NCBI GenBank assembly: GCA_002315475.1
Contig: DCGI01000050.1
Span: 139-55,746, forward strand
From: Christensenella sp. UBA1782
Lineage (GTDB): Bacteria; Bacillota; Clostridia; Christensenellales; DTU072
Direction: 5' to 3'
DNA length: 55,608 bases
Position 1 is the first letter of the stretch. Each line of letters opens with the position of its first letter. Below are positions 4,404 to 21,000 of this stretch, one piece after another. Made by a program: the position numbers and the translations under genes. The notes beneath the pieces are model-generated. The model ran no database searches, was not told the DNA's origin, and was given only the letters and a program-made list of their open reading frames with translations.

Positions 4404-5240
4404 TTATTGATAGCGTGCCTCTTGATAAAGGCGTCTGTTTGCTTCGGTGCGGAACATGACCGCCAAAGATACGTCGTCCCCGTATCCGGTTTTTTCACCG
4501 AGCCGAACAATCCAATCGTTTACGTTTTCTCTCTTGCCGTTCGCCAATTCCGTATAAACGGGCAAGATAAAGGATTTCGCAAAATTGGGTAAATTTTGAT
4601 AGGGGTTAATGATGCCGTCGGTGCAAAGGAATACGCCGTCATAGTCGCGAATATTGTAAAAATCCACGTGAATATGATAATAAGCGTCTTCCGAACACAT
4701 GGAATAGGTATAGTTTGCCACCGTTTCGTCGCTTGTTTCCTCTAAAATCGGCGTAACCACCCCTTTCTTGACGCCGAAAATACCACCGTCTCCCAAACTG
4801 ACGCAAAGTAGGTATTTTCCCAAAATCATGGCACCGTTTAAGGTCGTGCCGTAGGCTTTGGCAGGGTTGTTCTTCAAGCGGAATTGATCACGTTCGGAAA
4901 GCATTTCGATTTCCTTCTTCCCGATGTGATTCTGTTCCAAATCTTGTTCCACCAAAGCATTCCACCGACACAGAATATCCATTTTTATTTTGTTAAGAAC
5001 CTGTTCCTTCGGCTTGCCGTACAGAACCAACGAACGGACGCTCTTAAAAGCGTCGATGATGGCTTGACAGGCAAACTTACTGCCTCTGTCGCTTCGAATA
5101 TACACGTCTGATCCGTGTCCGTCGCAAACGGCAACAATCGTCCTCGTTTCGTCATGATAGGATACGGAAAAATCCTGACAGGGTTTTCCCGTTTTTAAGT
5201 GAGAAAACCCCACGTTGGTTTTGTTAAAAAACTCAATCAT
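4404..5240 (-). CDS. PP2C-family Ser/Thr protein phosphatase (TerY-P triad component)
   Basis: PP2C motifs 'CQDF', 'VAVCDGHGS', 'LGDGG', 'LCTDGI' and 'GDDVSLAV'. I place the start at the internal ATG (5240), which overlaps the upstream vWA stop by 8 nt; the ORF track extends to 5303. Confidence 0.85.
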   Translation of the reverse strand: MIEFFNKTNVGFSHLKTGKPCQDFSVSYHDETRTIVAVCDGHGSDVYIRSDRGSKFACQAIIDAFKSVRSLVLYGKPKEQVLNKIKMDILCRWNALVEQDLEQNHIGKKEIEMLSERDQFRLKNNPAKAYGTTLNGAMILGKYLLCVSLGDGGIFGVKKGVVTPILEETSDETVANYTYSMCSEDAYYHIHVDFYNIRDYDGVFLCTDGIINPYQNLPNFAKSFILPVYTELANGKRENVNDWIVRLGEKTGYGDDVSLAVMFRTEANRRLYQEARYQ

Positions 5241-6024
5241 CCTGCCACTCCCACGAGTCAATATCGTCGCTGATAGTCTGCTGTATTTGTTGTCTGATAT
5301 CATTTGTCACCTGATTTTCCGTATTTTGACCGATTCCCTGCGTTGTCGTACTGTCGGAGGACTTGACCTTTGAAGCCGTCATCACGATAATCTTAATAAT
5401 CTTTTCCAAAAGTTTTGCATCAAAGCAAGTAATGACGTCTCCGTTTTCACCGACGAAATCTCGAAGTACCTGCACCGTTCTGCCGTCATTTAACTCAATA
5501 GCGATGCCGTATCGAATTGCTACCTTAAACCATGGGAGTTTGTTCAAAATTTCCATTTCTTCCGTCAACGGCCACTTTGTCGGGTGCCCGTCCGTCAATA
5601 ACAACACGATGGGTGCCACGCCTCCGAAATCGGGCATAATGCCGCCTTTCGCTTCCTTTTTCAATAAGTCGGCAAGCTGCAAATAAGCCGTATGTAAATT
5701 GCTCCAACCACCGGCGCGGATATCCTTAAAATCAAATTCTTCCACCGCTTTCATCCTATCGTGATTCAACAAGAACGCTTCGGTAGAATAGGTGATAACC
5801 GTAAGATAAAAATCCACGTTGACGTTTTCGTTTTGTAAATCCGTCAAATACTGTTTGATGTCGTGAATAGCGTGATTCACTTGACCGATGCGTTCTCCCC
5901 GCATACTCGTGGAACAGTCCACCATGAGGATGACGTTCAAGCGTTGTTTAGCAATCTTCTCATCCATTCTGTCGGGTTTCCAAACAGGTTTTTCCGTATC
6001 GTTTCCTTGTATCGTTTCTGCCAT
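5233..6024 (-). CDS. TerY-like von Willebrand factor A (vWA) protein, copy 2
   Basis: MIDAS motif 'VDCSTSMRG' plus 'LLLTDGHPT'. S/T-rich then acidic Trp-containing tail 'SSDSTTTQG...DSWEWQDD'. Paralogous to 6206-6919. Confidence 0.85.
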   Translation of the reverse strand: MAETIQGNDTEKPVWKPDRMDEKIAKQRLNVILMVDCSTSMRGERIGQVNHAIHDIKQYLTDLQNENVNVDFYLTVITYSTEAFLLNHDRMKAVEEFDFKDIRAGGWSNLHTAYLQLADLLKKEAKGGIMPDFGGVAPIVLLLTDGHPTKWPLTEEMEILNKLPWFKVAIRYGIAIELNDGRTVQVLRDFVGENGDVITCFDAKLLEKIIKIIVMTASKVKSSDSTTTQGIGQNTENQVTNDIRQQIQQTISDDIDSWEWQDD

Positions 6025-6205: not shown

Positions 6206-6919
6206 TCAGTTCCAACCGTCCTGTACTTCTTCGTCCAGCTTTTGAGCGATTTGTTGTTGCGTCGCTTGATTGTTGTCGGTTACTGCGGTATTGGTAGAAC
6301 TCGACTTTGCCTTCGATGCGGTGACGGCAATCACGCGAATGATTTTCCGAAGTGCTTCCGCCGTATATACCTGCAAAACGGTTTCCGGATTGCCGGTAAA
6401 GGACGTCAGAATGTTCATGGCTTCGTCACTCTTGATAAAAATCGCCAAAGCATACCGCAAAGCCGCTTTGAACCAGCCTCTCTTCTTTAAGGCGTTTAGG
6501 TGGGCTTCCCAATCGGGACTGGTCGGCAATCCGTCCGTCATCAAGATGAGGATGGGCGCCACACCGCCGAAGTCGGGCATTTGACCGCCGTCCGCTTGCT
6601 TCATCAGGCACTTTTCCAGTTTATCGAAAGCATCGGAAAGGTTGGTTTCTCCCTCGGGAGCAAGATCTGCCCACTTAAAATCGGAAACCGTCTTTCCTTC
6701 GTTATAAACCCACGATGCGTGATCGCTGAACTTTAACGCGTGAATCTTGATGATTGCTTCCGATGTGTCTTCTTGGATTTCGGGCATGATACTCATTACG
6801 TCACGAATGGCGTTATTGACCGCCCCCAACTTTTCTCCGCTCATCGAACCGGAATTATCGATAATAAAAATCAAATTCAGTTCTTGCCGTACGATACCGT
6901 TTTCTTCTCTGTCTGCCAT
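6206..6919 (-). CDS. TerY-like von Willebrand factor A (vWA) protein, copy 1
   Basis: MIDAS motif 'IDNSGSMSG' plus 'ILMTDGLPT'. Tail 'KSSSTNTAVTDNNQ...EEVQDGWN'. The start lies 2 nt after the kinase stop. Confidence 0.85.
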   Translation of the reverse strand: MADREENGIVRQELNLIFIIDNSGSMSGEKLGAVNNAIRDVMSIMPEIQEDTSEAIIKIHALKFSDHASWVYNEGKTVSDFKWADLAPEGETNLSDAFDKLEKCLMKQADGGQMPDFGGVAPILILMTDGLPTSPDWEAHLNALKKRGWFKAALRYALAIFIKSDEAMNILTSFTGNPETVLQVYTAEALRKIIRVIAVTASKAKSSSTNTAVTDNNQATQQQIAQKLDEEVQDGWN

Positions 6920-6921
6920 AG

Positions 6922-8223
6922 TTACTCAATCTCTCCTTGTGTTGTATTGTTGAATTGTATTGTTAAATTGCGTGCCAACAGTATGACGCCGTTTCCCGCA
7001 AATATTTTTTCCTTACCCGTTACGTCTCTGACCACCACTTCCTGCGGAAGAGCCAAACGCAATCCCCAAAGGCTCGGGTTGTTCTTGTTGGAGATTACCC
7101 TGCCGACCGGCGTGCAGTAATCGTCGGAATACTTATCTAAGTGATGCCTGAAGATTTCTTTGCCCAAATCCAACACGATACGGTGTCTGCCCACGTGCAA
7201 AACGCATACGTCCTTCGTCGGTTTTCCGCAATAGGGACAAATCTTATTCGGTTGTTTTTCTTCAAAGCCGTAGATATAGTCGCTTTGGCAATAGGGACAG
7301 GACATAACCTCGTCACGATATTTGCAAAGGAACTTATTCCACTCGATTTCCGTCGTTCTGGCGTTTTCTCGGTCGGTTAAGCCGTCCACAAAGGTACGAT
7401 GAAACGCCTCTTTGATATAAATCGGAATGGAGAGCCATTTCTTGATCAAGGCGGTATGATAGCCGCGAATCGGTCGATTGCTCCTGTCCGTTTTATGATA
7501 AACGAATACCGGATTCTTGCCGTACATTTCAAAAATGGCTTGTTCGTCCATTATCTCGTAGTCTTTGAGCTTTTCCCCTTCAAACGGTCTTCCTTTACAC
7601 AGTGCCATAAACAATACGACAGCCAAAGAGAACCGATCGGAGTGGGTATCGGGATTCATTTCTTTCCGAACCACTTCGGGTGCCATAAACTTGATGATGC
7701 CCTGAATACCTAAGTTGTTCTTGTCGGCGGTAACGTTATCGTTGTCGCAAATCAGCAAATCGCCGGTATTGGGATCCAAGAAAAAGCCGCCGTCGTTCAA
7801 GTCTTGATAGGAGTATCCTTTTTCGTGCAACTTCTTAAACGATGTACACAGACTGATGCACCACTTCACCATGATAAACTTGTTCTTAAACTGTGCCTTT
7901 TCGTCACCGTTGACGTACTTGGTAAAAGAAACATAGTTCTGCGGACGCAGATCCATCAAATAGCCGACTTTACCTTCGTATTCGAAATACCGTTTCGGCC
8001 ACAAGAAGGTTTCGGCGGGGCTGCCGCGATCGATCAAACTCTTCAAGTTCTTTTTGAACTCGGGTTTGACTTCATTGATGTACACCTTCAAAGCATACTT
8101 TGCGCCGTTCATGGAAACAAGATACACCTCGCCTTGCCCGCCTGCCCCCAAAAGGGACTCTACGACCAACTTGGTACCGTCCTCCAATGCAACAACTTCG
8201 TTCTGTTTTAGTTTCATTTGCAA
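6922..8223 (-). CDS. Ser/Thr protein kinase with C-terminal zinc ribbon (TerY-P triad kinase)
   Basis: Gly-loop 'LGAGGQGEVY', 'YALKV' Lys, degenerate catalytic loop 'YQDLNDGG', 'ICDNDN' in place of DFG, and 'FMAPEV'. These are followed by 'CPYCQ...CPYCG'. The ATG at 8217 is an alternative to the TTG at 8223. Confidence 0.85.
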   Translation of the reverse strand: MQMKLKQNEVVALEDGTKLVVESLLGAGGQGEVYLVSMNGAKYALKVYINEVKPEFKKNLKSLIDRGSPAETFLWPKRYFEYEGKVGYLMDLRPQNYVSFTKYVNGDEKAQFKNKFIMVKWCISLCTSFKKLHEKGYSYQDLNDGGFFLDPNTGDLLICDNDNVTADKNNLGIQGIIKFMAPEVVRKEMNPDTHSDRFSLAVVLFMALCKGRPFEGEKLKDYEIMDEQAIFEMYGKNPVFVYHKTDRSNRPIRGYHTALIKKWLSIPIYIKEAFHRTFVDGLTDRENARTTEIEWNKFLCKYRDEVMSCPYCQSDYIYGFEEKQPNKICPYCGKPTKDVCVLHVGRHRIVLDLGKEIFRHHLDKYSDDYCTPVGRVISNKNNPSLWGLRLALPQEVVVRDVTGKEKIFAGNGVILLARNLTIQFNNTTQGEIE

Positions 8224-8283: not shown

Positions 8284-8904
8284 CTATCCTTGAATGCTCT
8301 TGGCGCCCAGACAAAGGGTAACCTTTTCGACCATCTCTTGATTCTTGGATGCTTCGCAATGCTTTTTGATGGCAATAAGGTTCTTAAAGAGTTTTTCGGT
8401 ATGTTCTTGCAACACAAACCGTTCGTTTTCCAAACTCTCTATCGAACCGCCGTTATGTTGTAACGAGCAGATTCTGTCGATCGACTTAAAGACCATCTTG
8501 TAGAGCTTTAAGGTCTTGTCTTTGTCGGGAGAGTATTCGAGGATGCTCTCGTCGATAACCGGCAAAGCCGAAAGAACAAAGTCGGCTGTTTCCAACGCTT
8601 TTACGCCTTTCGCGTGGTTTTTCGACAGCTCACGAATGGCTTCGCCCCCTCTTTGCATACCTTCCTTCTTGATGGAAGATATGACGGCGGTCTTGGTATC
8701 GACGTACTTAAAGTGAATCACCGCGTCGATGTCGTCCTTGTTCAGATACGTGCTGTTAATCAAATCCCTGCAAGTGACGGTTTTCAAAAACATGGGATGC
8801 ACGATGGGAACGGGTAAATCCACGAAACCGATTTGATCCGAAATGGTTCCCGACGTCTTTTTGAAAGACTTGATTTCTTTACTTTGTAAAAATTCTATCT
8901 TCAT
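8284..8904 (-). CDS. small protein resembling the N-terminal clamp / clamp-helix region of RNA polymerase beta-prime (no Zn ribbon, no catalytic domain)
   Basis: Segments match E. coli RpoC (recalled) by eye: 'GFVDLPVPIVHPMFLKT' vs 'GHIELASPTAHIWFLKS', 'FVLSALPVIDESIL' vs 'ILTVLPVLPPDLRP', and 'TLKLYKMVFKSIDRICSLQ...ENERFVLQEHTEKLFKN' vs '[20 protein letters not shown]...[17 protein letters not shown]'. RBS GAGAGG. Confidence 0.6.
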   Translation of the reverse strand: MKIEFLQSKEIKSFKKTSGTISDQIGFVDLPVPIVHPMFLKTVTCRDLINSTYLNKDDIDAVIHFKYVDTKTAVISSIKKEGMQRGGEAIRELSKNHAKGVKALETADFVLSALPVIDESILEYSPDKDKTLKLYKMVFKSIDRICSLQHNGGSIESLENERFVLQEHTEKLFKNLIAIKKHCEASKNQEMVEKVTLCLGAKSIQG

Positions 8905-9224: not shown

Positions 9225-9761
9225 TTACTTGTCAATAGGTAAACCTCCTTTTTTTTCGTTTTTTCCCAATTCTTTGACAAGGGAGCAAAGACTTTCCTGC
9301 AATAACGCTTTTTCGGTCTGCCGAATGGCTTCGGGTATCTCCATGCTCAGGAGCAGTCGCAAGCGGTTACTGCGGTTCAAGACGCGTACGTAAGCTATTT
9401 TCAAAGTTTCGGGATCGGCGTCTCGGGGATACTCCTTTTGGTAGAGTACGGGGAAGGAATGGAGCACGTACTTCTCGGATAACGTCGTCTTGCCCTTGTA
9501 TTGCGCCCATAATTCCGTTACGCCGTCCGTTCCCGTATTGCCGCTCGGTAAAACCTTTCGGTAGGTTACGATCTTTTTCAGTTCCGTCTTTTTCATTTGA
9601 CTCCGACAAAGCAGCTCTTTGCACTCGTCCGATTCCAAAAACAGCGGATGAATCATCGCTATCGGGAAAAGGATGTTGCCGCCTTCCCCTCGAAGAATGA
9701 GGGTAGGATCCGTAATAATTCTTTCCGTTCGTTCGTTCCTCTTTTTTTCTGCCATAAGCAC
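9225..9761 (-). CDS. small protein resembling the N-terminal clamp / clamp-helix region of RNA polymerase beta-prime, paralog 2
   Basis: Matching segments are 'GNILFPIAMIHPLFLES', 'YVLHSFPVLYQKEYP' and 'TLKIAYVRVLNRSNRLRLLLSMEIPEAIRQTEKALLQESLCSLV' (close to RpoC '[16 protein letters not shown]...[13 protein letters not shown]'). GTG start at 9761 or ATG at 9755, after a GAAGGAG RBS. Confidence 0.6.
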   Translation of the reverse strand: MLMAEKKRNERTERIITDPTLILRGEGGNILFPIAMIHPLFLESDECKELLCRSQMKKTELKKIVTYRKVLPSGNTGTDGVTELWAQYKGKTTLSEKYVLHSFPVLYQKEYPRDADPETLKIAYVRVLNRSNRLRLLLSMEIPEAIRQTEKALLQESLCSLVKELGKNEKKGGLPIDK

Positions 9762-9773
9762 CGTTTCTCCTTC

Positions 9774-10328
9774 TTATTTCTTGTATATTTTTCGTTTCCC
9801 CGTCCGCACGTCATAAATGCTGATCGGGAACAATTCGAATCTTGCAAATTGTTCGATGGCTTTATAGACTTCCACGATTCTTTTCGGCGTCGGCAACCCT
9901 TCGGTAAAGAGGTAGACTCCTTTTGCCAACTGATCGTACACCGATGCGCTTATATTCGTCTGCATAACCGACAAATTCAAAGAAATCTCATAGAGTGCTT
10001 CCGGCGTCGCCACGGCGTAACGGGCATCCGCTCTGCCTTTATCGTCGTATCTGTCATAGTCATCGTTGATTTTGACAATTTGCGGAACCAACTCTTGCAC
10101 GATATTTTCGGCATTTACCTCTCCCTTCATATACTTTTTCCCGCTTTCCGTAAGGACTTGAAAGGTTAAAAAGTCCCCCGAGGCGGCAAACATGGCGTTC
10201 TGTCCGGCGATTTTGGCAATGTGTAAATTATCCTCCAACAGATAATCGGCTTCCGACATATCACACAATTCTTCTTTGCTCGATACACCGATATAGGTCG
10301 TTTCGTCGTCTTTTATGGCTACAAACAT
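9774..10328 (-). CDS. proteasome-beta/HslV-like Ntn-hydrolase-fold paralog 4 (no Thr1; predicted inactive)
   Basis: Start reassigned to the ATG at 10328 ('MFVAIKDDETTYIGVSS'), with GGGAGG upstream, 2 nt after the preceding stop. Same length and N/C-terminal strand pattern as the three upstream paralogs. Confidence 0.55.
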   Translation of the reverse strand: MFVAIKDDETTYIGVSSKEELCDMSEADYLLEDNLHIAKIAGQNAMFAASGDFLTFQVLTESGKKYMKGEVNAENIVQELVPQIVKINDDYDRYDDKGRADARYAVATPEALYEISLNLSVMQTNISASVYDQLAKGVYLFTEGLPTPKRIVEVYKAIEQFARFELFPISIYDVRTGKRKIYKK

Positions 10329-10330
10329 AC

Positions 10331-10915
10331 TTACTTTACCTCCCTTACGGTCAACGTTAAGTCCTTCGTGTTGACGGTGACGAACCTGTCGCCGATATCT
10401 TCGTAATAAGCCGAACACTTCTTAAAAATGGTTCCGAATTGTTCTTCCACGTCCTTTTCCGGTCGAATCGCCGCCAAACAAGGCGTACACATAGAAGAGA
10501 TATTCCCCACGCTGCGATACGACCGATAGCGTACCACCCCAAAACCGCTGCAGATTTCAAACAAATCCCCGTCGTGCGCTATCAGTAAAGGGGCTTCCAT
10601 GTTGCACGTTTCCTCTCTTCCCAACCAGTTTCTTTCCTTATAAAAGCGATAGACGGCGGGAAGAATGTGCGTTATTATTTGTTTGAACGTCAATTTACCG
10701 TTCTTATCCAACGGGAACAATTCGGGATGAGACAGTAACTCTTGTCCGCGACTTTCGTTGCCGTCCGGACGAGCGACCAAAACGCCTTCTTCCGTTTTCA
10801 AAATGGGCAAGACGGGCTCAAAAGAATCGTCCATCTTGCGTCCCGACGATATCCTCATGACGTTTGCTCCGAAATAAACCACGTTATCCCGTACGTAACT
10901 CAATAGTACCGACAT
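10331..10915 (-). CDS. proteasome-beta/HslV-like Ntn-hydrolase-fold paralog 3 (Ser at position 2, Asn at the Asp17 position)
   Basis: 'MSVLLSYVRDNVVYFGANV...' and a C-terminus 'FVTVNTKDLTLTVREVK' that parallels paralog 1 'FLLIDSKDLTFTEVEA'. 16-nt overlap with the upstream gene. Confidence 0.55.
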   Translation of the reverse strand: MSVLLSYVRDNVVYFGANVMRISSGRKMDDSFEPVLPILKTEEGVLVARPDGNESRGQELLSHPELFPLDKNGKLTFKQIITHILPAVYRFYKERNWLGREETCNMEAPLLIAHDGDLFEICSGFGVVRYRSYRSVGNISSMCTPCLAAIRPEKDVEEQFGTIFKKCSAYYEDIGDRFVTVNTKDLTLTVREVK

Positions 10916-11478
10916 AAATCCTCCTTTGCGTACACGACTCTCTTTTCACCCGTAACCGTATCCAGCAAAGCCAACGGATACAAGTCGTTATGCGTCTCTT
11001 TCCGGAATTTTTCGACAAAATCCATGATTCTTTCTTCGGCGGGTTTCCCTCTGTTTTCCGCTAAAACGGCATAACCGAAATCGGCGTATATGCAGTGCAG
11101 AAGGTCTCCCTTTCGTTCAAAAAGCAGAAAATCCACGGAAATATCGTAGATTTTCCCGTCGACGAACAGGGTAAGGGTATTCCTCCAAGTATCGTTTTCG
11201 AGGAATCCCGTTCGTTCGACAGTCTCTCGAATGGCAGGAATCATATCCCGTAGGATACTCTCTTTGCTCTTCGCCATTTCCCATATCGCATCATCATGTA
11301 TAAGGGCGTCGGTGCAACCGTTAAAAACGGAAAAACATCCCAGAATTCCGCCGTTTTCATTTTTCCGAATGGGCAGATTCTCGTCACAAACGTAGTCGCA
11401 TTCCGAAAGAAAATCGGTATCCCATGTGTTGGAAACGGCCAGCAACGCTCCTTTTTCCTTTTCTATACAGATAATCAT
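10900..11478 (-). CDS. proteasome-beta/HslV-like Ntn-hydrolase-fold paralog 2 (no Thr1; predicted inactive)
   Basis: 'MIICIEKEKGALLAVSNTW...' and an internal 'LRDMIPAIRETVERTGF' that parallels 'VRDIIPKMKKWLGENKL' of paralog 1. ATGA overlap with paralog 1. Confidence 0.55.
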   Translation of the reverse strand: MIICIEKEKGALLAVSNTWDTDFLSECDYVCDENLPIRKNENGGILGCFSVFNGCTDALIHDDAIWEMAKSKESILRDMIPAIRETVERTGFLENDTWRNTLTLFVDGKIYDISVDFLLFERKGDLLHCIYADFGYAVLAENRGKPAEERIMDFVEKFRKETHNDLYPLALLDTVTGEKRVVYAKEDLCRYY

Positions 11479-12044
11479 GCTTCCACCTCCGTAAACGTTA
11501 AATCCTTACTGTCGATGAGTAAAAACGGTGCGTCGACACCCGACGAATAACGGGTGGAACACCGCAATCCTTCCAAAAGTGTTTCTTCCGCCGACTTCGA
11601 CTCGTCTACGTCAAGCAGTTTCGCCGTTGCAAAATCGCAACCGCAACCGATCGCATATCGGTCGGTAATCCGTATCGTCTTCCATCTGTCTACGATAGCG
11701 TACAGTTTATCCTTCCACGCCAACAGGAAAGAATTGTTTACCGTTCCGTTTTCCTCCAACAATTTGTTTTCCCCCAGCCACTTCTTCATCTTCGGAATAA
11801 TATCCCGCACGATCAAATCTTTGGTCAATCCCTCTTCGCCTATCATGAATTCGTCTTCGTGTTGCCACAAAAGTTGCGAAACCCGCACCAAACCGGAACT
11901 GCCTATCAATAAACCGTCCCGCAGCTTGTGAATCTTCTTCGTTTCCTTCCGGGAATTGTTGCTCTTTTGCACGCCGACAGACGTCTGCGTGTCGGTTCCC
12001 ATGTACACCGTTCCGTTCCGAACTATTCCGATAATAACCGTCAT
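11475..12044 (-). CDS. proteasome-beta/HslV-like N-terminal-threonine hydrolase (putative catalytic subunit)
   Basis: 'MTVIIGIVRNGTVYMGTDTQTS...KKIHKLRDGLLIGSSG...YAIGCGCDFA' aligns by eye with HslV '[23 protein letters not shown]...KKVRRLYNDKVIAGFAGG...LAIGSGG'. Thr directly after Met, and Asp17- and Lys33-equivalents are retained. RBS AAGGAGGA. Confidence 0.65.
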   Translation of the reverse strand: MTVIIGIVRNGTVYMGTDTQTSVGVQKSNNSRKETKKIHKLRDGLLIGSSGLVRVSQLLWQHEDEFMIGEEGLTKDLIVRDIIPKMKKWLGENKLLEENGTVNNSFLLAWKDKLYAIVDRWKTIRITDRYAIGCGCDFATAKLLDVDESKSAEETLLEGLRCSTRYSSGVDAPFLLIDSKDLTFTEVEA

Positions 12045-12108: not shown

Positions 12109-13944
12109 TCATTTCTCGCTCCCTTCTTTGTAAGAAATTTCGGTGATTTGCAAAAACAATTCTTCGTCGTCCCATGCGTGCAGTCCCGCATACTCCAAAA
12201 AGGCTTCTTCCACGTTCTTTTCACTCTCTTCGCAGTAGGTTTTTCCCTCCCCGTCAAAGAACTTCAAATAGATTTCTTTGGCGGCATCGAACCCTTTTTC
12301 GCAACCGGTGCCGTATACCTCCAACACCGACAAGTCGGCAAGTGCGTACGAAAGATAATAGCAGGGAGATTCTATCACGACGTACCGCCAATAGCTTTCG
12401 TTCCCTTCCATGCCGTACGTTTTTGCGATTTCGGCAAAAGCGGTATCGTACTCGCTCTGTGGAATACTCCCCTCGTAAACCTTTCTTTCGAATTCGTCCA
12501 CGGCGCAAGCGAGCAAAATCGAGCTGCATATCGAATCCATTTGTGCGCATTGTACGTACTTATAGACACTGCTGCCGCGTGCTTGCAAAGTCTCTTGCAG
12601 ATACGTCAACAAAAGGAATTCGTCCCCTATCGACTGCATTTCCTTAATGTCGTAAGAATCGTACTCCGCACCGCAAATATCGGCAAAATAATGCCCGTAT
12701 TCATGCACGAACGTGAATAACGTGGAATAGTTTTCCCTTTCCATATATAAGATAGGCTTTTCCAAACCTTCGTTCACGTAGGTAAAAGCTCCCGCATAGG
12801 CGTTTTCTCCCGTACCGATATAGTAATTTCCCTCTTTGAAAATGTCGTTGGCACAGTCGAAAAAGTTATATTCGGATGTCGCGTTCTCCCCCATCCTTTC
12901 CAAATACGACGCAAGCGTTTCCGAAGCGATGACGGAGGTTTCTATCGATTCCGCAAGCAACGCCGTCAAAGTACTAAGCCACGTCGGCATCCTCCCGAAA
13001 AACAATCCGATTCCGTCCCCGACTCCCATATCGGAATAGAGATTTTCGAAAAGTTCTTCGCTGTACTCCGAAAATTCCCGATAATACGGTACGATATACT
13101 CCTTCACCAACGCTTGCATTTCTTCGATTTCGGCAAGGTCTACGCTCCGTCCGTACAGGTTTTCCTGCGCGTATTGATAAAAGGTATCGTATCCGGCAAG
13201 AACGGCGTAGCGATTATTCTTTTCCACGTAATCTTTATATAAGGATAATACCTCTTCGCTGTTCGTCGGATCGGAAATTTTCCGAAACGCCCGTTCGATT
13301 TCGTTGATTTCGGACGTTAAAGCGGCTTGTTCCTGCGCTTTGTCGCCGAGCGAAAGAACGGCGTCGACGTCGTCCTGCGTCCAGCCGTCTTCCTCGCTGA
13401 AAAAGTATTCTCGGTACTCCGTTTCGTAAACCAACGGAAATAAAGAAAGGTAGTTTTCGTTATAATCGGCGAGCACCTGCGATATTTCTTCGTAATCGTC
13501 GGCGTATTCGATACAGTCCAAACAGTACCGAACGTAAGCGTACGCCTCCTGCACTTCCAAGTATTCTTGATAGCCGCAATAGCGGTCGTATATTTCTTCA
13601 AACGCTTTATTCTTTTGATACAGTTCACTGTCCTTGACAAAGCCGTCGGTGTTCTCGTCATACCGATCCGCCGCCGCAATCGCCGTCTTGACGTCCCGTA
13701 AAGCCGTAGCGATTTCCCCCTCTTTTTCTTCGTCGTACGAATAGACGAAAACGTCTTGATAGATGTTCAGACTTTCCCGTCTTGACGTATGCGGGCATCC
13801 CTCTTGCTCGCAAGAAGCCACTCGAATATAATCGTCCGCATACGAATAGCTGCAAGTATGCTCGGGTACCGTATCGAAAACGGTGCAACCGAACAGTAAC
13901 GTACACAGAACCGCACACAAAACGCCAATGCCTACCTTTTTCAT
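12109..13944 (-). CDS. lipoprotein zinc metallopeptidase, M3 (oligoendopeptidase F)-like
   Basis: Signal peptide plus lipobox 'LCTLLFGC'. HExxH motif 'FVHEYGHYF' with a downstream Glu ('DIKEMQSIGDEF'). Strong GGAGGA RBS. Confidence 0.65.
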   Translation of the reverse strand: MKKVGIGVLCAVLCTLLFGCTVFDTVPEHTCSYSYADDYIRVASCEQEGCPHTSRRESLNIYQDVFVYSYDEEKEGEIATALRDVKTAIAAADRYDENTDGFVKDSELYQKNKAFEEIYDRYCGYQEYLEVQEAYAYVRYCLDCIEYADDYEEISQVLADYNENYLSLFPLVYETEYREYFFSEEDGWTQDDVDAVLSLGDKAQEQAALTSEINEIERAFRKISDPTNSEEVLSLYKDYVEKNNRYAVLAGYDTFYQYAQENLYGRSVDLAEIEEMQALVKEYIVPYYREFSEYSEELFENLYSDMGVGDGIGLFFGRMPTWLSTLTALLAESIETSVIASETLASYLERMGENATSEYNFFDCANDIFKEGNYYIGTGENAYAGAFTYVNEGLEKPILYMERENYSTLFTFVHEYGHYFADICGAEYDSYDIKEMQSIGDEFLLLTYLQETLQARGSSVYKYVQCAQMDSICSSILLACAVDEFERKVYEGSIPQSEYDTAFAEIAKTYGMEGNESYWRYVVIESPCYYLSYALADLSVLEVYGTGCEKGFDAAKEIYLKFFDGEGKTYCEESEKNVEEAFLEYAGLHAWDDEELFLQITEISYKEGSEK

Positions 13945-14045: not shown

Positions 14046-15359
14046 TCAAGAATTCTGCATAAGTGCAACCAATTCTTGATAATCCAGCTGTTTCCTGTCT
14101 ATCAAGGCTTCGGCAATACGGGTGATTTCCTCGCGGTGTTCTTCCATAAGGAAACGCACGATCTTATCGCTTTCGGACAGAACGGAAACGACGAAATCAT
14201 GCCGTCTTACTTCGAGGGTATCACTGACACCGTAACGGCGAACCGACGACTGGAATTGACAGTTTTCATAGCCGTAGAATCCTTCTTCGCACATACCGTT
14301 GATGATTTCCTGCGCCTTGGCAAGGTCGGAAACGCAACCCGCCATACGCTTGCCGAGGAACACTTCGGTCGCGATGCCGCCCGCTATTGCCACCCGAACG
14401 GTCTGCTCCAGGCTTTCCTTCGTACTGTAGTCGTCCTTTTCGGAACGGTTCAAGATGCTACCGGTCGAGCTTCCCTGCGGAATAATCGAAGCGTTGATGA
14501 TATGCTTCTTGTAGTACAGACTGATAAAGGCGTGTCCCGCTTCGTGGTAAGCCGTCGCTTTCAGCCTTTCGGAATTGTCCAAATCAATCGTCTTCGGAAT
14601 GTCACGCAAGGTTACCCGTTTCATGGCGGAGATAATGTCGGCTGTCGTGATGGTGTCGCCACGACGCTGTACGCTGTTGATGACCGCTTCGTTGGCGATA
14701 CACTCTATATCGGCACAACTGCATCCCGCCGTATCCAGTACCAGACCTTGTATGTCGACGGAATCGTCCAACTTGATTTGACGGGTATAGTAGTCGAATA
14801 TCGCCTTTCTGTCCCCTTCTTCGGGTAAATGGAACTGCAACATACGATCAAACCGTCCCGTACGCAGGAGGGTATCGCTCAACAAACGTAAATCGTTTGC
14901 CGTAGCGATGACGATGGATTTGCCTTCCCGACCGATGGCGTCGATGGCTTGCATCAGTATCTTTTGGGTGTTCAGGTTTTCGGGAACGTCGTATTGCCAC
15001 TTGTCATACCCCGCAAACTTATCGATTTCGTCGATGAAAATGATGCATTTGCCGATTTCGTGTGCCTGCGCAAAGGTATCCACAATCAGCTTATCGATAT
15101 TGACGCCCTTCGTCAAGCCTTCGGCTTCGCTCACTTCCAACAACGGTACCTCGCTCGCCTTGCTGATGGCTTTCACCACTTTGGTCTTGCCCATGCCCGG
15201 TTTGCCGTACAACAAAAAGCCTTTCGGGAAGCGAGCGCCGCTCGCAAGGTATTCCTCTTCCCGAATCAACATGTCCACTACGCCCATGGCGTCCTTCTTG
15301 ATACTTTCGTAGCCGGCGATTTCGTTAAAAATTTCTTGTATTCTTTCTTGACTGTTCAT
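14046..15359 (-). CDS. soluble FtsH-like protease: AAA+ ATPase fused to an M41 zinc peptidase, no transmembrane segment
   Basis: Walker A 'GKPGMGKT', Walker B 'IIFIDEID', SRH 'TANDLRLLSDTLLRTGRFDR', M41 'AYHEAGHAF'. The N-terminus starts directly with the AAA module. Confidence 0.85.
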   Translation of the reverse strand: MNSQERIQEIFNEIAGYESIKKDAMGVVDMLIREEEYLASGARFPKGFLLYGKPGMGKTKVVKAISKASEVPLLEVSEAEGLTKGVNIDKLIVDTFAQAHEIGKCIIFIDEIDKFAGYDKWQYDVPENLNTQKILMQAIDAIGREGKSIVIATANDLRLLSDTLLRTGRFDRMLQFHLPEEGDRKAIFDYYTRQIKLDDSVDIQGLVLDTAGCSCADIECIANEAVINSVQRRGDTITTADIISAMKRVTLRDIPKTIDLDNSERLKATAYHEAGHAFISLYYKKHIINASIIPQGSSTGSILNRSEKDDYSTKESLEQTVRVAIAGGIATEVFLGKRMAGCVSDLAKAQEIINGMCEEGFYGYENCQFQSSVRRYGVSDTLEVRRHDFVVSVLSESDKIVRFLMEEHREEITRIAEALIDRKQLDYQELVALMQNS

Positions 15360-15366
15360 GCTTCGT

Positions 15367-16521
15367 TTACTCCTGTTCTTGCATTTGATTGGTCGCTTTC
15401 ATGTAGTTTTCCATTGCTTTTACGTCAAATTCCGCAATGGAAGTTCGGACGGTTTTCCCCGCCTTTTCAATATCCGACATGCCGATAAAACCGGCTTTGC
15501 CCGTTTCGATTTCTCGCTCGATGGCAAACATTTTGGCACATTCGCACATTTCAACGGTATCCGCTCCACTGTAGTTTTCTGTCAGGCGAACCACTTCCTC
15601 CTCGCAGTAGTCCTCTCCCATCGGTGCTCCGTCGAACGACAGAGCAATCAATTTCTTCCTTGCTTCTTCGCTGGGTAACGGTACGTATATCTTCCTGTTG
15701 AACCGTCCCGGTCGCAAGAATGCGGTATCCACGTCCCATGGACGGTTGGTCGCCGCAAGTATCACCAAATTATGATTGCCGTTCTCTTCGAATCCGTCCA
15801 TTTGGTTGAGTAGTTCATGCACCACTCTGTTCATCGCTTCGTTCCCTTCGCCCGAACGTTTCATGCCGATAGCTTCAAACTCGTCGAAGAAAATAATGGC
15901 TTTTCCGCTCTGACGAGCCTTATCGAACAGCTCTTTGATGTTTCCTTCGCTTTCGCCGAACCACTTGGAAAGCAGGTCGGAACACTTTATCGGAAAGAAA
16001 CTGGCTTGCATATCCTTGGCGATGGCTTTGGCAATCATGGTCTTCCCCGTACCCGGCAAGCCGTACAGCAGGATACCCCCTCCCGTCTTCTTGTTGTACC
16101 GCTTATATAAGGACGGGTACATGAACGGGTAAACTACCTGTCTGCGGATTTCCTCCTTCACGTCCTCCAAACCGGCTACCCTGTCCATAGCGTTTTCCTT
16201 CTTCTTGAACATTTCGCTGAACTCGTTGATGGGTATATTCAGTCCCATGGCGGTGTCCTCGATGTTGGTAAAAAGGGTTTCGTAAGACGAAGCGTCCGAC
16301 AAATCGACACACCTGTCCAACAGTTGTTTGGCCTTATCGATAAAACTCGGACGCAACTCGAAAGCAACGTTCCTTGCGATGTTCAAAAGCGTCCCTACCG
16401 CACAAACGATGGCTCGCTTTCCCGTTTCTTCGTTACGCAGAGAAAACTGCTCCAAAGCATACCGATAAAACTTCAAAAAGGTCTCTTGTTCTTGTTTGAT
16501 ACAATCTTGTTTACGATTCAT
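15367..16521 (-). CDS. classic-clade AAA ATPase (Vps4/katanin/CDC48-like) with an N-terminal helical (MIT-like?) domain
   Basis: 'GILLYGLPGTGKT', 'IIFFDEFE', 'ILAATNRPWDVDTAFLRPGRFNR'. About 115 aa of helical N-terminal region. Confidence 0.85.
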   Translation of the reverse strand: MNRKQDCIKQEQETFLKFYRYALEQFSLRNEETGKRAIVCAVGTLLNIARNVAFELRPSFIDKAKQLLDRCVDLSDASSYETLFTNIEDTAMGLNIPINEFSEMFKKKENAMDRVAGLEDVKEEIRRQVVYPFMYPSLYKRYNKKTGGGILLYGLPGTGKTMIAKAIAKDMQASFFPIKCSDLLSKWFGESEGNIKELFDKARQSGKAIIFFDEFEAIGMKRSGEGNEAMNRVVHELLNQMDGFEENGNHNLVILAATNRPWDVDTAFLRPGRFNRKIYVPLPSEEARKKLIALSFDGAPMGEDYCEEEVVRLTENYSGADTVEMCECAKMFAIEREIETGKAGFIGMSDIEKAGKTVRTSIAEFDVKAMENYMKATNQMQEQE

Positions 16522-17190: not shown

Positions 17191-17219
17191 CATCCCCTTA
17201 TACTATGTATAAGGGGATG
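17191..17219 (-). terminator. Strong (bidirectional) rho-independent terminator after the polymerase-like gene
   Basis: 12-bp perfect stem CATCCCCTTATA / TATAAGGGGATG with a 5-nt loop, and T-runs on both strands. Confidence 0.75.
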
Positions 17220-17283: not shown

Positions 17284-19998
17284 CTATCTCTTCCCGAAGG
17301 TATAGCCGCAAAGGTTGACGGTGCCGTTCGGCATCTCGTACAGCTCGGGTAGCGAAGTCGTCCCCTTCTGCAAAAGGGTACGCACGAGGGGATTGTTCTC
17401 CTGCAAAATCGCCGAATAAAACAACCAGTCTTCCTCTTGTTGTTTTTCGCACCACTGAACGAGCAGACGTATTACGTTTTCACTGCCAATCATTTTTTGA
17501 ATCTCGATATCCCGTTCCTGACGCATTTGCATAATATCTTCTTGGATGATTTCCTGTTCGGACTCCGCAAGATTACCTAACAAAAAGTACTTGAACTTTA
17601 GTTTCTTTTCATAACGACGGTATATTTTCATGATTGCGTTCTTGCGGGCGTAGTCGGTCGAGGTCGTCTTTTGGGAAACCTCTCCGAATAGGGCGGATAT
17701 GGGTAGCAACTCCAATTTACCCTCTCTCCCCTCCCGTAAATCGCAACGGTCATTCACGCAACTTAAAATCAAATCCATCGGCGTTTTGTACAGGCGAAAC
17801 GTACCGGATACGCCCCGATGATTTTTCTTCGCCTTTATTTCTTCGATGCATTGGAAAAATTGCGGTTTTGCCAAAAAGTCATCCTTGATGTATTTTTCGC
17901 TTAACTCTTTCATGATTCCCTTGCAATCCACCCCGAAGTTTCTTTTCGCCTTATCGATTTCGATACCCGACAGAACGGAGAGGATACAAATATCGTGATA
18001 GATTTCCCGGCAGAAATCGCTATCTTCCGGCTTTCCCGAAGAGAGTTTTTCCCACAGAATACCGTTGAGCCGTTGCGAAAGGTTGACGATTTGCCCGATG
18101 GCGTTTTCACTGTTATAGATATCCACTTGGGTTAAGTCTAACGTTTCGCCGTCTTTTTCGTCAATGGCGCAGACGGGGACTTTGAAGAGGTCGTAATTCT
18201 TTTCGGCATTACGAACCAACGTCGGATCGGAAGTCATCAACATGGTATCGGAGTCGTAGTCGCATCCGTTCAAACGCTGTTGTACGTTTTCGCCGACGGC
18301 GTTGACGCAAACGATATTGTTCCCTAAGTCAAAATACTCCCAAACGTCGTCTTTCGTTTTGTTGGTGACAAGATACAGATTGCCCATCGTGATATGGGGT
18401 GAACGGGCGCAAAGGATTTTTTCTCCGTCTTGAAAACGCATACACCGCACTTCCCCTTTTTGCAGAGTGAGGTTTTCGGGAGAATACGTTCCGATGACCG
18501 ACCGTAACAATTCGGGGCCGTTGCCGAACAGGGTGGCGTTGGTACCGTCGACGAGGAAATGCCCTTTTTTCATCATTTCTTTCATCGACCGTATTGCCGT
18601 TTCCCGAAAATTATAATATAATCGTGTTTTACGGAAACCTTCGTTGTGCCGAATGAGGGAAAAAATCAATTGGGAACGGTTAAGCAGACTATCTTCCCAC
18701 GCTACGGTGTCCGTCGACTCCTGTTCCTCTTTTTCCCGATTGGAGAGGTTGGAATAATAATAACACATGACGGACGGATCTTCGTTCATTTGTTTGATCA
18801 GGTTAAAATTCCCTTCCAAAAAGGAATAAATGCTTTCTTGGTCGATTTGTACGGTGTTCAATAATTGATAGCTTGTACTTACCATCCTTCCGTTAAAAAA
18901 CTTCGTTCTTTTATCGGTCTTAACCACGCCGAAGGTATCGGTCACGTTATTTGCCCAGTTTTGTATGTTTTCCGACGAAAGTTTCGTATCCTTGCAAAAT
19001 TTCAGATATTTCAAACTACTCGGCGTGGTAATCATGACGATTTGATGAATATCGGTCGCCAGCGTCACGCCGCCGTTTTCGGTCAAAACGGATAAATCGG
19101 TGATGCCGTTATCGGCAAACCATTTTTGAATTTTGGTACGGAAGGCACAAGACTTGAAAAACTTATTCCGCAAAAGCATCATGTGCTTATCGGCGTACCC
19201 GTCTTGAAAAACGCTTTCGTCGAGGAGCGCCTCCCCGTCCCAAATGGTATTGGTTACGATGGCTTTTCCCTGCTCGGCAACGATTTTTCCGTCCTCTTCC
19301 CGCACGCTGACCACTTCTTCTTCAAACGAAGAATACCGATCGGGTACAAACAGTATACCCTCCAAAGGAATACGAACCACGCCTTTTAACGAGCTGAGAG
19401 AAAGGGCTTTATAGGCTTCCCACGTCGCCAGCTTTACGGGATTCCATTTCAAACCGCATTCGCCCCATTTTTCCATGCTCCGCAATAAAGATTTTTGAAT
19501 GAAAAGGCATTTCCCCATACGACTGCTGCCGGCACTTCTTTTATAGCGCACGTACTCGACGCCGTTTATGCAAAAACCGTTTTCGTACAGTTTTCTTCGG
19601 AGCTTGAAAACGTCGAGGAGAACCTTTCCTTTCGGTTTCTTTTCTTGCTCGGTGTCCTTGCCTTTCTTTTTCTTCTTTTGGGATACTCTTTTGGCTTTTT
19701 GTTCTTCGGTCTCCTCCACCTTTTCCCGAAGGCACCGATCAAAATCCACGTTGACGACGGCGAGGGTATACGAAAAACCCTTTTCGTCTTGAAACGAAAA
19801 CTTCTTTCGTTCTTTTTTCGCATAGATATTTTGTAATTCTACCGAGTCAAGCGACCAATCCAACACGTTGGAAAACAACGTATAATACTTCTCGTTTTTT
19901 TCGGCAGGCAGAACATACCCTTGCTCGGGATTTTCCAACGAGGATCTGACGATGTCGCACGCTTCCAGCGAGAGAATTCTAAAACTATTTTTTCCCAT
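17284..19998 (-). CDS. RdRP/YonO-like single-polypeptide two-barrel (DPBB) RNA polymerase homolog
   Basis: Collinear with hallmarks of the eukaryotic-type RdRP family. First barrel: 'NGVEYVRYKRSAGSSRMGKCLFI', 'YKALSLSS', 'IWDGEALLDESV'. Second barrel: 'ILCARSPHITMGNLYLV', then the catalytic 'NGCDYDSDTMLMT' (DYDSD at 18247-18261; compare DxDGD of RdRPs and NADFDGD of beta-prime). Downstream: 'AIGQIVNLSQ' and 'ICILSVLSGIEIDKAKRNFGVD'. Confidence 0.7.
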   Translation of the reverse strand: MGKNSFRILSLEACDIVRSSLENPEQGYVLPAEKNEKYYTLFSNVLDWSLDSVELQNIYAKKERKKFSFQDEKGFSYTLAVVNVDFDRCLREKVEETEEQKAKRVSQKKKKKGKDTEQEKKPKGKVLLDVFKLRRKLYENGFCINGVEYVRYKRSAGSSRMGKCLFIQKSLLRSMEKWGECGLKWNPVKLATWEAYKALSLSSLKGVVRIPLEGILFVPDRYSSFEEEVVSVREEDGKIVAEQGKAIVTNTIWDGEALLDESVFQDGYADKHMMLLRNKFFKSCAFRTKIQKWFADNGITDLSVLTENGGVTLATDIHQIVMITTPSSLKYLKFCKDTKLSSENIQNWANNVTDTFGVVKTDKRTKFFNGRMVSTSYQLLNTVQIDQESIYSFLEGNFNLIKQMNEDPSVMCYYYSNLSNREKEEQESTDTVAWEDSLLNRSQLIFSLIRHNEGFRKTRLYYNFRETAIRSMKEMMKKGHFLVDGTNATLFGNGPELLRSVIGTYSPENLTLQKGEVRCMRFQDGEKILCARSPHITMGNLYLVTNKTKDDVWEYFDLGNNIVCVNAVGENVQQRLNGCDYDSDTMLMTSDPTLVRNAEKNYDLFKVPVCAIDEKDGETLDLTQVDIYNSENAIGQIVNLSQRLNGILWEKLSSGKPEDSDFCREIYHDICILSVLSGIEIDKAKRNFGVDCKGIMKELSEKYIKDDFLAKPQFFQCIEEIKAKKNHRGVSGTFRLYKTPMDLILSCVNDRCDLREGREGKLELLPISALFGEVSQKTTSTDYARKNAIMKIYRRYEKKLKFKYFLLGNLAESEQEIIQEDIMQMRQERDIEIQKMIGSENVIRLLVQWCEKQQEEDWLFYSAILQENNPLVRTLLQKGTTSLPELYEMPNGTVNLCGYTFGKR

Positions 19999-20063: not shown

Positions 20064-20828
20064 CTATACTTTTTCATAATCGTTCGGTTTCCGCACGAAA
20101 GCAATCTCCTCTTCTCGACACGCCCCGAACTTTTTATAGTTTTCCCGTGCCGTATTCAGCGAAACGCCGTTACACGAAAACGCCCGATCGGGATCGTTTA
20201 CGGACACGTCGTCGTCCTCCCAATAACAAACGGGGCAGATAAAGAAGGTTCCGTTCGGCTTCTCGCTAAACGTCTTTTGTCCGCAACAGGGACAGGGAAA
20301 ACTTTCCAACGTGGGCAAGCCTTCTTCCGTCATTTTCCATCCTTTCAAAAGCTGTTCTTCTTGCAAAGCCTCGCGAAGGTACTCGTCCAAATACGGAAAA
20401 ACGTGGTTCTTCTTGACAAATTCCACCATTTCTTCGTAAGAGTAGAAATAGAACAAAAGCTTTTTGGAACGGATTTTTCCCTCGTTTTTCGGGAAAAAAG
20501 TTAAGGAAAACATGGAAAAAAACCGTCCCATGTGGATATGTAAAACATCCTTTTTTTCTAATTTTTTCTTGTTTTGGTAAAAAGCGTTTTCGTCTTGTCG
20601 GAAATTCTGCCTTTTGTACAAAATCGCACCCATTATCAAAAAAATCCCGAACGACAACACCCACATCACGACGAAAGCCAAATTCACCCACAGTGCCGTC
20701 GATCCGAAATCGTCGTCCCCGAATACCGAAACCACCATAATCAACCCGTCCAACACCACGTAAATCGGCAACAGTACGTATAACCCGATCGAACAAGCCA
20801 TCTTCCACATAAAATTCTTTCGTTTCAT
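20064..20828 (-). CDS. membrane protein with a C-terminal cysteine-rich CPCC domain
   Basis: Three predicted TM helices after 'MKRKNFMWKMACSIGLYVLL'. C-terminus 'CPCCGQKTF...FICPVCYWEDDD' matches the CPCC-family signature. The ORF track extends to 20960, but I prefer the ATG at 20828. Confidence 0.6.
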   Translation of the reverse strand: MKRKNFMWKMACSIGLYVLLPIYVVLDGLIMVVSVFGDDDFGSTALWVNLAFVVMWVLSFGIFLIMGAILYKRQNFRQDENAFYQNKKKLEKKDVLHIHMGRFFSMFSLTFFPKNEGKIRSKKLLFYFYSYEEMVEFVKKNHVFPYLDEYLREALQEEQLLKGWKMTEEGLPTLESFPCPCCGQKTFSEKPNGTFFICPVCYWEDDDVSVNDPDRAFSCNGVSLNTARENYKKFGACREEEIAFVRKPNDYEKV

Positions 20829-20834
20829 GCCCCC

Positions 20835-20863
20835 ATTATAACAAATATCTTTCCTTTTTTCCA
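20835..20863 (-). promoter_or_regulatory. extended -10 promoter for the CPCC gene, with leaderless geometry
   Basis: On the minus strand: TGGAAA (20858-20863), 17-nt spacer ending in TGt, TATAAT (20835-20840). Then 6 nt (GGGGGC) to the ATG at 20828. Confidence 0.35.
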
Positions 20864-21000
20864 GTATTTTTCCGATGAGTTTTGTAAAAAAAATCCTATG
20901 TCGGTTTTTTTTGCCCACGATAGGTATATCCCGCATATCCTTGAAAAGATTTTTTTCCATATATCTCGAAACCGTTCGTGAAAAATACCGAGAAGGGGGG

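Follow-up and report, generated by a model that had tools for sequence, protein, structure and literature searches.

A conserved array of predicted active and inactive proteasome-like subunits in a Clostridia gene island with AAA ATPase and TerY-P genes

Introduction

Can a bacterial proteasome-like peptidase be built from several different subunits, only some of which carry an active site? This question is raised by a 55,608-nucleotide stretch of DNA from Christensenella sp. UBA1782 (contig DCGI01000050.1, positions 139 to 55,746; the whole stretch is called the window below). The window is a chromosome fragment in which four tandem genes, here termed P1 to P4, encode paralogues resembling proteasome β subunits and HslV. 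An earlier interpretation made from the letters of the window (the sequence-only reading) had suggested one active and three inactive paralogues and, from these, a heteromeric ring. Bacterial proteasome homologues other than 20S whose structures are solved, namely HslV and BPH, form homo-oligomeric rings (PMC8665760). A survey by Fuchs, Alva and Lupas in 2021 described 22 new homologue families, chosen by conserved active-site residues, and stated that gene context was uninformative and an AAA+ partner lacking for each of these (PMC8665760). Here we show that P1–P4 fall into two homologous classes, that ordered arrays of both classes recur in other lineages, and that their active and dead members are under purifying selection alike. 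The reading that we favour, with moderate confidence, is that P1–P4 are subunits of one heteromeric proteasome-like N-terminal nucleophile (Ntn; MEROPS T1-type) peptidase, encoded in an island with AAA and TerY-P genes.

Results

The four genes lie on the minus strand in the order P1 (11475–12044, 189 amino acids), P2 (10900–11478, 192 amino acids), P3 (10331–10915, 194 amino acids) and P4 (9774–10328, 184 amino acids from the ATG at 10328), and a GGAGG-type Shine-Dalgarno sequence precedes each of them. P1 and P2 overlap by 4 nt and P2 and P3 by 16 nt, whereas P3 and P4 are separated by 2 nt, in agreement with the translational coupling described in the sequence-only reading; all four lengths recur in the public gene call on an identical contig. 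The start codon of P4 had been questioned in that reading, yet it is right, being supported by its Shine-Dalgarno sequence, by the public 184-residue gene call and by orthologues starting M[YF][IV]A(I). The N-termini that had been quoted, as well as the motifs 'KKIHKL', 'LIGSSG' and 'AIGCGCD', are all present, and the helix proposed to be common to all four proteins ('xRDxIPxxxxxxxE') is recognizable in loose form, although the strict motif does not hold and Pro alone is invariant. The C-terminus of P4 is very conserved ('FPISIYDVRTGKRKIY').

All four proteins are mutually homologous. BLASTP between the window paralogues connects P1 with P3 (2e-14), P2 with P4 (4e-10), P1 with P2 (9e-6) and P1 with P4 (5e-5). 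Subfamily alignments built from relatives of the four proteins (F1–F4) were further compared profile to profile using hhalign, yielding probabilities of 98.95–100% and E-values of 1e-17 to 1.5e-64 across F1–F4. The F1–F3 (1.5e-64) and F2–F4 (7e-52) comparisons score best, ahead of F1–F2 (1.3e-33, 99.9%), F1–F4 (9e-29), F2–F3 (1e-23) and F3–F4 (1e-17), and because of these scores we distinguish two classes, A (F1, F3) and B (F2, F4). P1, P2 and P3 match the hidden Markov models (HMMs) of their own families at 1.3e-65, 2.1e-56 and 2.1e-67, respectively. The resulting gene order, A-B-A'-B', is what the doubling of an A-B pair would produce.

Profile searches, hhalign and AlphaFold2 models of P1 and P4 uphold the assignment of all four paralogues to the proteasome-β/HslV superfamily, and P1–P4 are predicted to adopt the αββα Ntn-hydrolase fold of the proteasome family (PF00227; MEROPS T1). 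P1 matches phrog_1040, 'peptidase HslV family' (2.4e-9), and scores 19.0 bits against Pfam Proteasome PF00227, below the gathering cut-off of 22.4; P2–P4 have no Pfam match, and P4 has no sequence match in any library. A profile of 71 F1 sequences retrieved T. maritima HslV as its top match among PDB sequences (1.4e-13), with BPH (2.4e-11) and β subunits (~2e-10) behind it. The F2 profile found marginal β matches only (0.016) and no α chain in the PDB, and F2 is tied to F1 through hhalign; by the same method, P2 and P3 are joined to F1/F4 at probabilities of at least 99.6%. A profile made from the four window paralogues themselves gave spurious monellin matches in the PDB and was discarded.

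The structural models complement these searches. The P1 model (pLDDT, the predicted local distance difference test score, 95.7; predicted template-modelling score, pTM, 0.91) has BPH (5ovs) as its best Foldseek match, with a template-modelling (TM) score of 0.78–0.80 and an E-value of 5.6e-11, followed by archaeal β, HslV and Anbu, all of them, BPH included, at probability 1.00. The P4 model (pLDDT 82.6, pTM 0.84) begins at strand S1 (E2–6) and matches 20S α and β subunits (E ~5e-8, TM 0.60–0.65), with α subunits on top, and also phage HslV-like proteins. The likeness of P1 to HslV that had been drawn by eye is thus real as a weak alignment over the whole length and does not extend to orthology: P1 reaches 16.5 and 17 bits against the NCBIfam HslV models, whose cut-offs are 157.75 (TIGR03692) and 137 (NF003964), and stays far under the NCBIfam archaeal β cut-off too. 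Judged by these scores, P1 is not an HslV orthologue.

Catalytic proteasome-like proteins are defined by a triad of Thr1 or Ser1, Asp17 and Lys33, together with Gly47 of the oxyanion hole (PMC8665760). In P1, Thr follows directly after Met (codon 12039–12041), and equivalents of Asp17 (codon 11991–11993) and Lys33 (codon 11934–11936) are in place, the latter being the second K of 'KKIHKL'; the oxyanion Gly lies in 'IGSSG'. Across the F1 alignment, these residues (T2, D18, K37 and G51 in Met numbering) show no or almost no variation. P2 and P4 are one or two residues short at their start and therefore have no position-1 residue; they carry Ser or Thr at position 17 and Pro or His at the Lys33 position ('ENLP'/'DNLH'; 'ENLPI' in P2). 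P3 keeps Ser1, with Asn replacing Asp17 and Pro replacing Lys33. Because P1 alone holds Thr1, Asp17 and Lys33, with P2 and P4 lacking all three residues and P3 lacking the last two, the window has exactly one predicted active subunit. The proposal of one active and three inactive copies is hence correct with respect to the single triad, but the paralogues are better described as two classes in A-B-A'-B' order than as one active protein with three mutually unrelated dead ones.

Family-wide residue counts were obtained from the top 160 family representatives (71 F1, 21 F3 and 68 F2/F4). Ser or Thr at position 1, Asp17 and Lys33 are found together in 67/71 F1 and 10/21 F3 sequences and in none of the 68 F2/F4 sequences (0/35 for F2). 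Position 1 of F1 is occupied by Ser in 60 and by Thr in nine of the 71 proteins, making Ser the usual nucleophile of the family. As A' proteins often still have the triad, arrays in other lineages may contain two active subunits.

To judge from an exhaustive HMM search over 1.84 billion representatives (50% identity), the family is large, with 2,441 members at E ≤ 1e-3, 486 at ≤ 1e-10 and 22 at ≤ 1e-30; this search overturned an impression of rarity left by word-indexed searches, which returned 2–13 proteins and missed F2/F3 orthologues. Ordered four-gene or two-gene A-B arrays are present in at least ten other Clostridia or metagenome loci (numbered with the prefix L). The order F1-F2-F3-F4 is repeated in L005/L002 and L012, and L011 harbors a contig-truncated F1 gene followed by F2-F3-F4. 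L017 contains F1-F2-F3 and a fourth gene that scores 110.7 bits against F2 versus 98.7 bits against F4, L019 and L021 carry more divergent A-B-A'-B' arrays, and L018, L020, L022 and L007 carry A-B pairs. Array order differs in L014; wherever a locus is sequenced far enough for a judgement, a B gene comes after an A gene. All related array loci with named hosts come from metagenome-assembled genomes of Clostridia, from human, deer, goat and rabbit guts. Ratios of nonsynonymous to synonymous substitution (dN/dS) between orthologues amount to 0.07 for F1 (codon-aware alignment), 0.095 for F2, 0.08–0.22 for F3 and 0.09–0.16 for F4. Purifying selection is equal on active and dead copies.

The nearest annotated relatives of P1 are phage proteins, GP65 of Geobacillus virus E3 and a Moorella phage protein, matched by the F1 HMM at 1.5e-43 and 1.4e-30, respectively; both are single-gene, with no B gene nearby. 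Single-gene phage peptidases of this 'HslV family' are the sister group of P1. Motif scans of IMG/VR yielded no relatives and no arrays, GTDB genomes scanned with the P4 motif yielded none, and blastn of the array region against phage genomes gave no match, while a metagenome motif scan returned two short contigs only. Separately, one protein from the exhaustive search (P0071, 271 amino acids) is a fusion in which an F4-like class-B subunit is followed, at the C-terminus, by an FtsK-gamma winged-helix DNA-binding domain (Pfam 5.1e-22).

The array is part of an island at ~1.3–21 kb of the window, all genes of which are on the minus strand. It is bounded by an Fe-hydrogenase gene (5–1114) on one side and by metabolic genes (~21.5 kb onward) on the other. 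Two AAA genes had been noticed upstream of the array at 14046–16521, and both are confirmed. The more distant one (15367–16521) encodes a single-domain, Cdc48/p97-D2-like ATPase of 384 amino acids (Pfam AAA 4.5e-43), whose PDB matches include p97/Cdc48 D2 (1e-107) and archaeal VAT (4e-97), and which has an intact Walker A motif and the pore loop 'SKWFGE'. A phmmer comparison of window proteins with the related loci showed that the arrays of L018 (1e-79) and L022 (1e-72) each have an orthologue of this ATPase immediately upstream; in the case of L022 its stop codon overlaps the ATG of the A gene, and 'SKWFGE' is conserved. The ATPase is a candidate unfoldase partner of the array.

The second AAA gene (14046–15359) encodes a soluble FtsH-like protein, in which AAA (Pfam 9e-24) and M41 metalloprotease (Peptidase_M41, 3e-21) domains are combined. 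It has no transmembrane segment, matches cytosolic regions of FtsH over its full length, keeps the HEAGH zinc site, and has an orthologue in L022 (3873–5153, 1e-49). Since the pore-loop aromatic residue is lost in both orthologues ('GLTKG' in the window), this protein may be incapable of substrate translocation. A further gene (12109–13944) encodes a predicted lipoprotein of 611 amino acids that is distantly M3 oligoendopeptidase-like (HEYGH; NCBIfam TIGR02289 at 4.5e-9, far below cut-off). It has no homologue in the related loci and so is not conserved beside arrays; it is also unrelated to the 372-residue protein upstream of the L005 array, and both proteins were rejected as conserved partners.

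Downstream of the array, the island encodes a Ser/Thr kinase with a C-terminal zinc ribbon (6922–8217; Pfam Pkinase 1.8e-14, Zn-ribbon matches at residues 302–348), two TerY-like von Willebrand factor A (vWA) proteins (vWA protein 1 at 6206–6919, Pfam VWA 5.6e-10; vWA protein 2 at 5233–6024, 3.4e-8) and a PP2C phosphatase (4404–5240; Pfam PP2C_2 2e-32), in addition to two proteins of unknown function. A TerY-P triad consists of a TerY-like vWA protein, a PP2C phosphatase and a Ser/Thr kinase fused to a C-terminal zinc ribbon (PMC11090510), and the window contains all of these, with the vWA protein present twice. Kinase orthologues are located directly downstream of the arrays in L002, L005, L018 and L020 (E 1e-176 to 1e-191), and are followed by two vWA genes and PP2C in L002 and L020 and by two vWA genes up to the contig end in L005; L022 has a vWA gene only of the TerY-P set. 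Orthologues of vWA protein 1 are thus found in L002, L005, L020 and L022, those of vWA protein 2 in L002, L005 and L020, and those of PP2C in L002 and L020.

Between array and kinase lie two mutually paralogous genes for proteins similar to the clamp helices of the RNA polymerase β' subunit. One (9225–9755 or 9225–9761) encodes a miniature β' N-terminal/clamp-helices-like protein of 176–178 amino acids (NCBIfam rpoC 3.4e-6), the other (8284–8904) a clamp-helices-like protein of 206 amino acids, recognized by Pfam RNA_pol_Rpb1_1 (0.0011) and by alignment. A profile of both proteins and a related domain from L018 matched only β' chains in the PDB (E 1.8e-10 to 7e-7) and aligns to residues 234–309 of E. 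coli β'. The β' clamp helices are the docking site of σ factors and NusG, and the proteins encoded here may be decoys or adaptors. The L018 domain belongs to a fusion with a Sel1-repeat protein, which is encoded upstream of that locus's array (L018 910–2502), and a weaker clamp-helix domain (E 2e-4; Pfam 0.006) forms the C-terminal extension of a class-B subunit, P0062. In the lineage of L002 and L005, the position of the window's β'-like genes is held by a hydrophobic 42-residue peptide (MKKFFGFLVLSI...), conserved between array and kinase (L002 1433–1561; L005 3621–3749).

For two further arrays the ATPase partner is of another kind and the context resembles type VII secretion. Those of L019 (6348–7904) and L021 (6367–7929), both from Clostridia metagenome-assembled genomes, follow a gene for an Hsp70-like ATPase (PF00012, 6e-33), upstream of which we found FtsK/SpoIIIE in L021 (Pfam) and small WXG100-like open reading frames (ORFs) in L019 (by eye). 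A weak, below-threshold peptidase C39-like match was also seen upstream in L019. Collectively, the four-gene (or two-gene) array is a stable unit, with AAA and TerY-P genes as recurrent but facultative partners.

The remaining island genes include an HTH + WYL + WCX regulator in two overlapping ORFs (1327–2294; Pfam HTH_11, WYL and WCX). The HTH_11 ORF (1905–2294) and the WYL-WCX ORF (1327–2013) apparently represent one regulator split by a frameshift, and an intact homologue of 331 amino acids flanks the array locus of L022. At the far end of the island, a 298-residue protein (20064–20960) has a C-terminal cysteine-rich CPCC domain (PF14206, 1.3e-27). A 904-residue protein (17284–19998) matches phrog_8308 (6.6e-89) and, weakly, a PHROG 'RNA-dependent RNA polymerase' family; it has a 'DYDSD' motif reminiscent of two-barrel polymerases and no sequence relative in the PDB. 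We leave this protein out of the system, as a strong bidirectional terminator (17191–17219) lies between its gene and the operon and the gene is absent from the related loci. Outside the island, an L-fucose isomerase gene (21508–23333, plus strand) is apparently split into overlapping ORFs (21508–22368 and 22344–23333), reflecting either a frameshift/pseudogene or an assembly error.

Discussion

On the reading that we favour, P1 would supply the sole working active site of a self-compartmentalising peptidase, its N-terminal Thr being exposed by removal of Met with no propeptide needed. P3 would be a catalytically degenerate class-A copy, and the class-B proteins P2 and P4 would act as structural or gating partners, similar to 20S α or inactive β subunits, such that class A gives active sites and class B architecture. 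It is tempting to speculate that even-numbered, hexameric rings could hold alternating subunits and match a hexameric AAA. The upstream Cdc48-D2-like ATPase would most likely feed unfolded substrates to the complex, which the TerY-P module (kinase, two vWA proteins and PP2C) would probably switch or target. The island as a whole would represent a mobile stress or conflict cassette, probably directed against phages. The array itself would have originated by duplication of an ancestral A-B pair, and that pair from a single-gene, phage-spread HslV/BPH-like peptidase. The case for a heteromeric ring, initially made from a single locus, is strengthened because ordered arrays are conserved in other lineages and because the dead paralogues are under purifying selection.

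Several points weigh against this reading. Homology, fold, the catalytic-residue pattern, gene order, selection and recurring neighbours are what we show, whereas co-assembly of the four proteins, like ring stoichiometry, proteolysis, AAA coupling, phospho-regulation and a role in defence, is something that we infer. P1 taken alone remains below Pfam and NCBIfam thresholds, and PADLOC has no model for the four array genes, nor for the vWA and PP2C genes. The 384-residue ATPase has no C-terminal HbYX-type docking motif, and the gene for the 611-residue lipoprotein sits between the window's AAA genes and the array. SpoVK/Cdc48-like AAAs moreover reportedly accompany TerY-like vWA genes where any proteasome homologue is missing (PMC11090510), and for this reason the AAA could belong to the vWA module and not to the peptidase. 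Genomic contexts also vary: the L012 array is located after a histidine kinase gene, those of L011 and L008 are followed by GrpB and by ferritin-like and NUDIX genes, respectively, that of L017 lies beside apparent housekeeping genes (N-terminal sequences, by eye), and the L019 and L021 arrays follow the Hsp70-like ATPase and FtsK/WXG100 cluster. As several arrays stand alone or in unrelated contexts, those of L012, L011 and L008 having none of these partners, neither AAA nor TerY-P genes are obligatory.

Class-B proteins might instead serve a homo-oligomeric class-A enzyme as assembly chaperones, as inhibitors in the form of pseudo-subunit caps or as substrate adaptors, or A and B might each assemble into homomeric rings of their own, stacked as in α7β7β7α7. 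Although we regard this as unlikely, it is the alternative that we take most seriously: class B is distinct and always dead, phages have A-only singletons that presumably function unaided, α subunits are the best matches of the P4 model, and prokaryotic 20S, HslV and BPH are as a rule built from homomeric rings in a stack (PMC8665760; PMC13022661). A chaperone or cap would, however, hardly need two A and two B types in tight coupling at 1:1:1:1 gene dosage, and class B has no α-type N-terminal helix. With respect to mixed versus stacked homomeric rings, the same data fit both and cannot separate them. A further possibility, which we consider rather improbable, is that of a sequence-specific processing enzyme or connectase-like transpeptidase devoted to one target, such as a vWA protein of TerY-P, the precursor of a toxin or a β'-like protein. 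The proteasome-like connectase is a monomeric ligase, and many of the new homologues may not form barrels (PMC8665760); one active site per four subunits and variable contexts with no obligatory unfoldase would suit such an enzyme. Yet the fold of P1, with both helix pairs present, is nearest to the ring-forming BPH, β and HslV, and a Cdc48-like unfoldase with intact pore loop repeatedly adjoins the arrays.

The view that P1 is an ordinary HslV or prophage remnant, accompanied by functionless, decaying duplicates, is hardly credible by comparison. It could appeal to the weak full-length alignment of P1 with HslV and to phage-family genes in the island such as phrog_8308, but P1 reaches a mere 16–17 bits where the HslV cut-offs are 137–158, HslU is missing, the motif scans of IMG/VR gave no relatives, and P2–P4 retain their order across lineages at dN/dS values of 0.08–0.22. 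NCBIfam scores, conserved arrays and dN/dS together effectively refute it. At the opposite end, one may picture an independently evolved analogue of the 26S proteasome, a more elaborate version of the heteromeric peptidase that we hold to be improbable as a whole. A core of A and B subunits would be fed by a Cdc48-like unfoldase, vWA proteins would take the receptor role that Rpn10 has, under the control of a kinase/PP2C switch, and the stand-alone β' clamp-helix mimics would select substrates by capturing proteins resembling σ or NusG, such as those encoded by phages, for destruction. If true, this would amount to targeted degradation of transcription factors as a means of immunity or regulation.

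Comparison with known systems helps to delimit the arrays. BPH (PDB 5OVS/5OVT/5OVU) resembles P1 in its length of ~190 amino acids, the missing propeptide and the combination of N-terminal nucleophile, Asp17 and Lys33; it is the best structural and second-best sequence-profile match to P1, yet only 16% identical. BPH is encoded by a single gene and forms homo-heptameric double rings (PMC5777263; PMC8665760), in contrast to the arrays of two or four paralogues described here, which combine active with permanently dead proteins, have AAA and TerY-P neighbours and are found in Clostridia. HslV is likewise an Ntn Thr peptidase with an adjacent AAA+ unfoldase gene and a nucleophile exposed by Met removal, but it is homo-hexameric, whereas most members of the present family use Ser1. 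The HslV partner gene hslU (HslU/ClpX clade, I domain) is not adjacent here; the window ATPases are Cdc48-D2-like, of the classical clade, and FtsH-like.

The 20S proteasome shares with the arrays that catalytic and non-catalytic homologous subunits are encoded together, here with the active gene first, and that its unfoldase partners are AAAs of the Cdc48/VAT/PAN type. Its variants range from the α + β particles of archaea and actinobacteria and the two α and two β types of Rhodococcus to the eukaryotic form with inactive β3, β4, β6 and β7. Prokaryotic 20S particles contain one or a few α and β types (PMC8665760; PMC13022661). Unlike 20S α, class B has no N-terminal H0 helix or gating extension and starts at S1, one or two residues short, and the locus has no Pup or ubiquitin machinery. 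As class B resembles class A (hhalign 1e-33) far more than it does any α, the dead class apparently arose independently of 20S. The phage 'HslV family' phrog_1040, represented by GP65 (29% identical to P1, 4e-13), comprises single genes with no class-B neighbour and probably corresponds, by its described distribution, to the AAH group of Fuchs, Alva and Lupas 2021 (PMC8665760). By the same description, F1 is probably placed in or beside this phage-spread group.

With regard to TerY-P, the triad (Anantharaman et al. 2012) and its defence activity (Gao et al. 2020) are known to us as cited in PMC11090510. All three components are present in the window and conserved beside arrays in four other loci, the difference being the duplicated vWA gene; an association of TerY-P with proteasome-like peptidases was not found in the literature searched. 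The island is also reminiscent of the defence system IetAS, inasmuch as an ATPase and a protease are encoded in a mobile island and both AAA proteins match PADLOC models of IetA (4.6e-35 and 1.7e-26). These matches cover the generic AAA core only, however, and an IetS homologue is missing here. IetS is a serine protease and not an Ntn peptidase.

Class B would have escaped the 2021 survey because its families were selected by active-site residues. In the literature that we searched, A/B arrays are not described, nor is any link of such genes to TerY-P or Cdc48-like AAAs, and neither a heteromeric bacterial proteasome homologue nor a proteasome-like defence system or β' clamp-helix decoy was found. 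The array points to an undescribed multi-subunit, protein-degrading machine of bacteria. It would mean that permanently inactive proteasome-like subunits originated a second time, apparently independently; these are conserved and paired 1:1 with active ones, making the arrays a natural test case for why proteasomes gain dead subunits. With a recurrent Cdc48-like AAA neighbour that is in one instance translationally coupled, the unfoldase question becomes directly testable. Finally, the TerY-P switch and the β' clamp-helix mimics suggest that proteolysis encoded by a mobile conflict island in gut Clostridia is both regulated and targeted.

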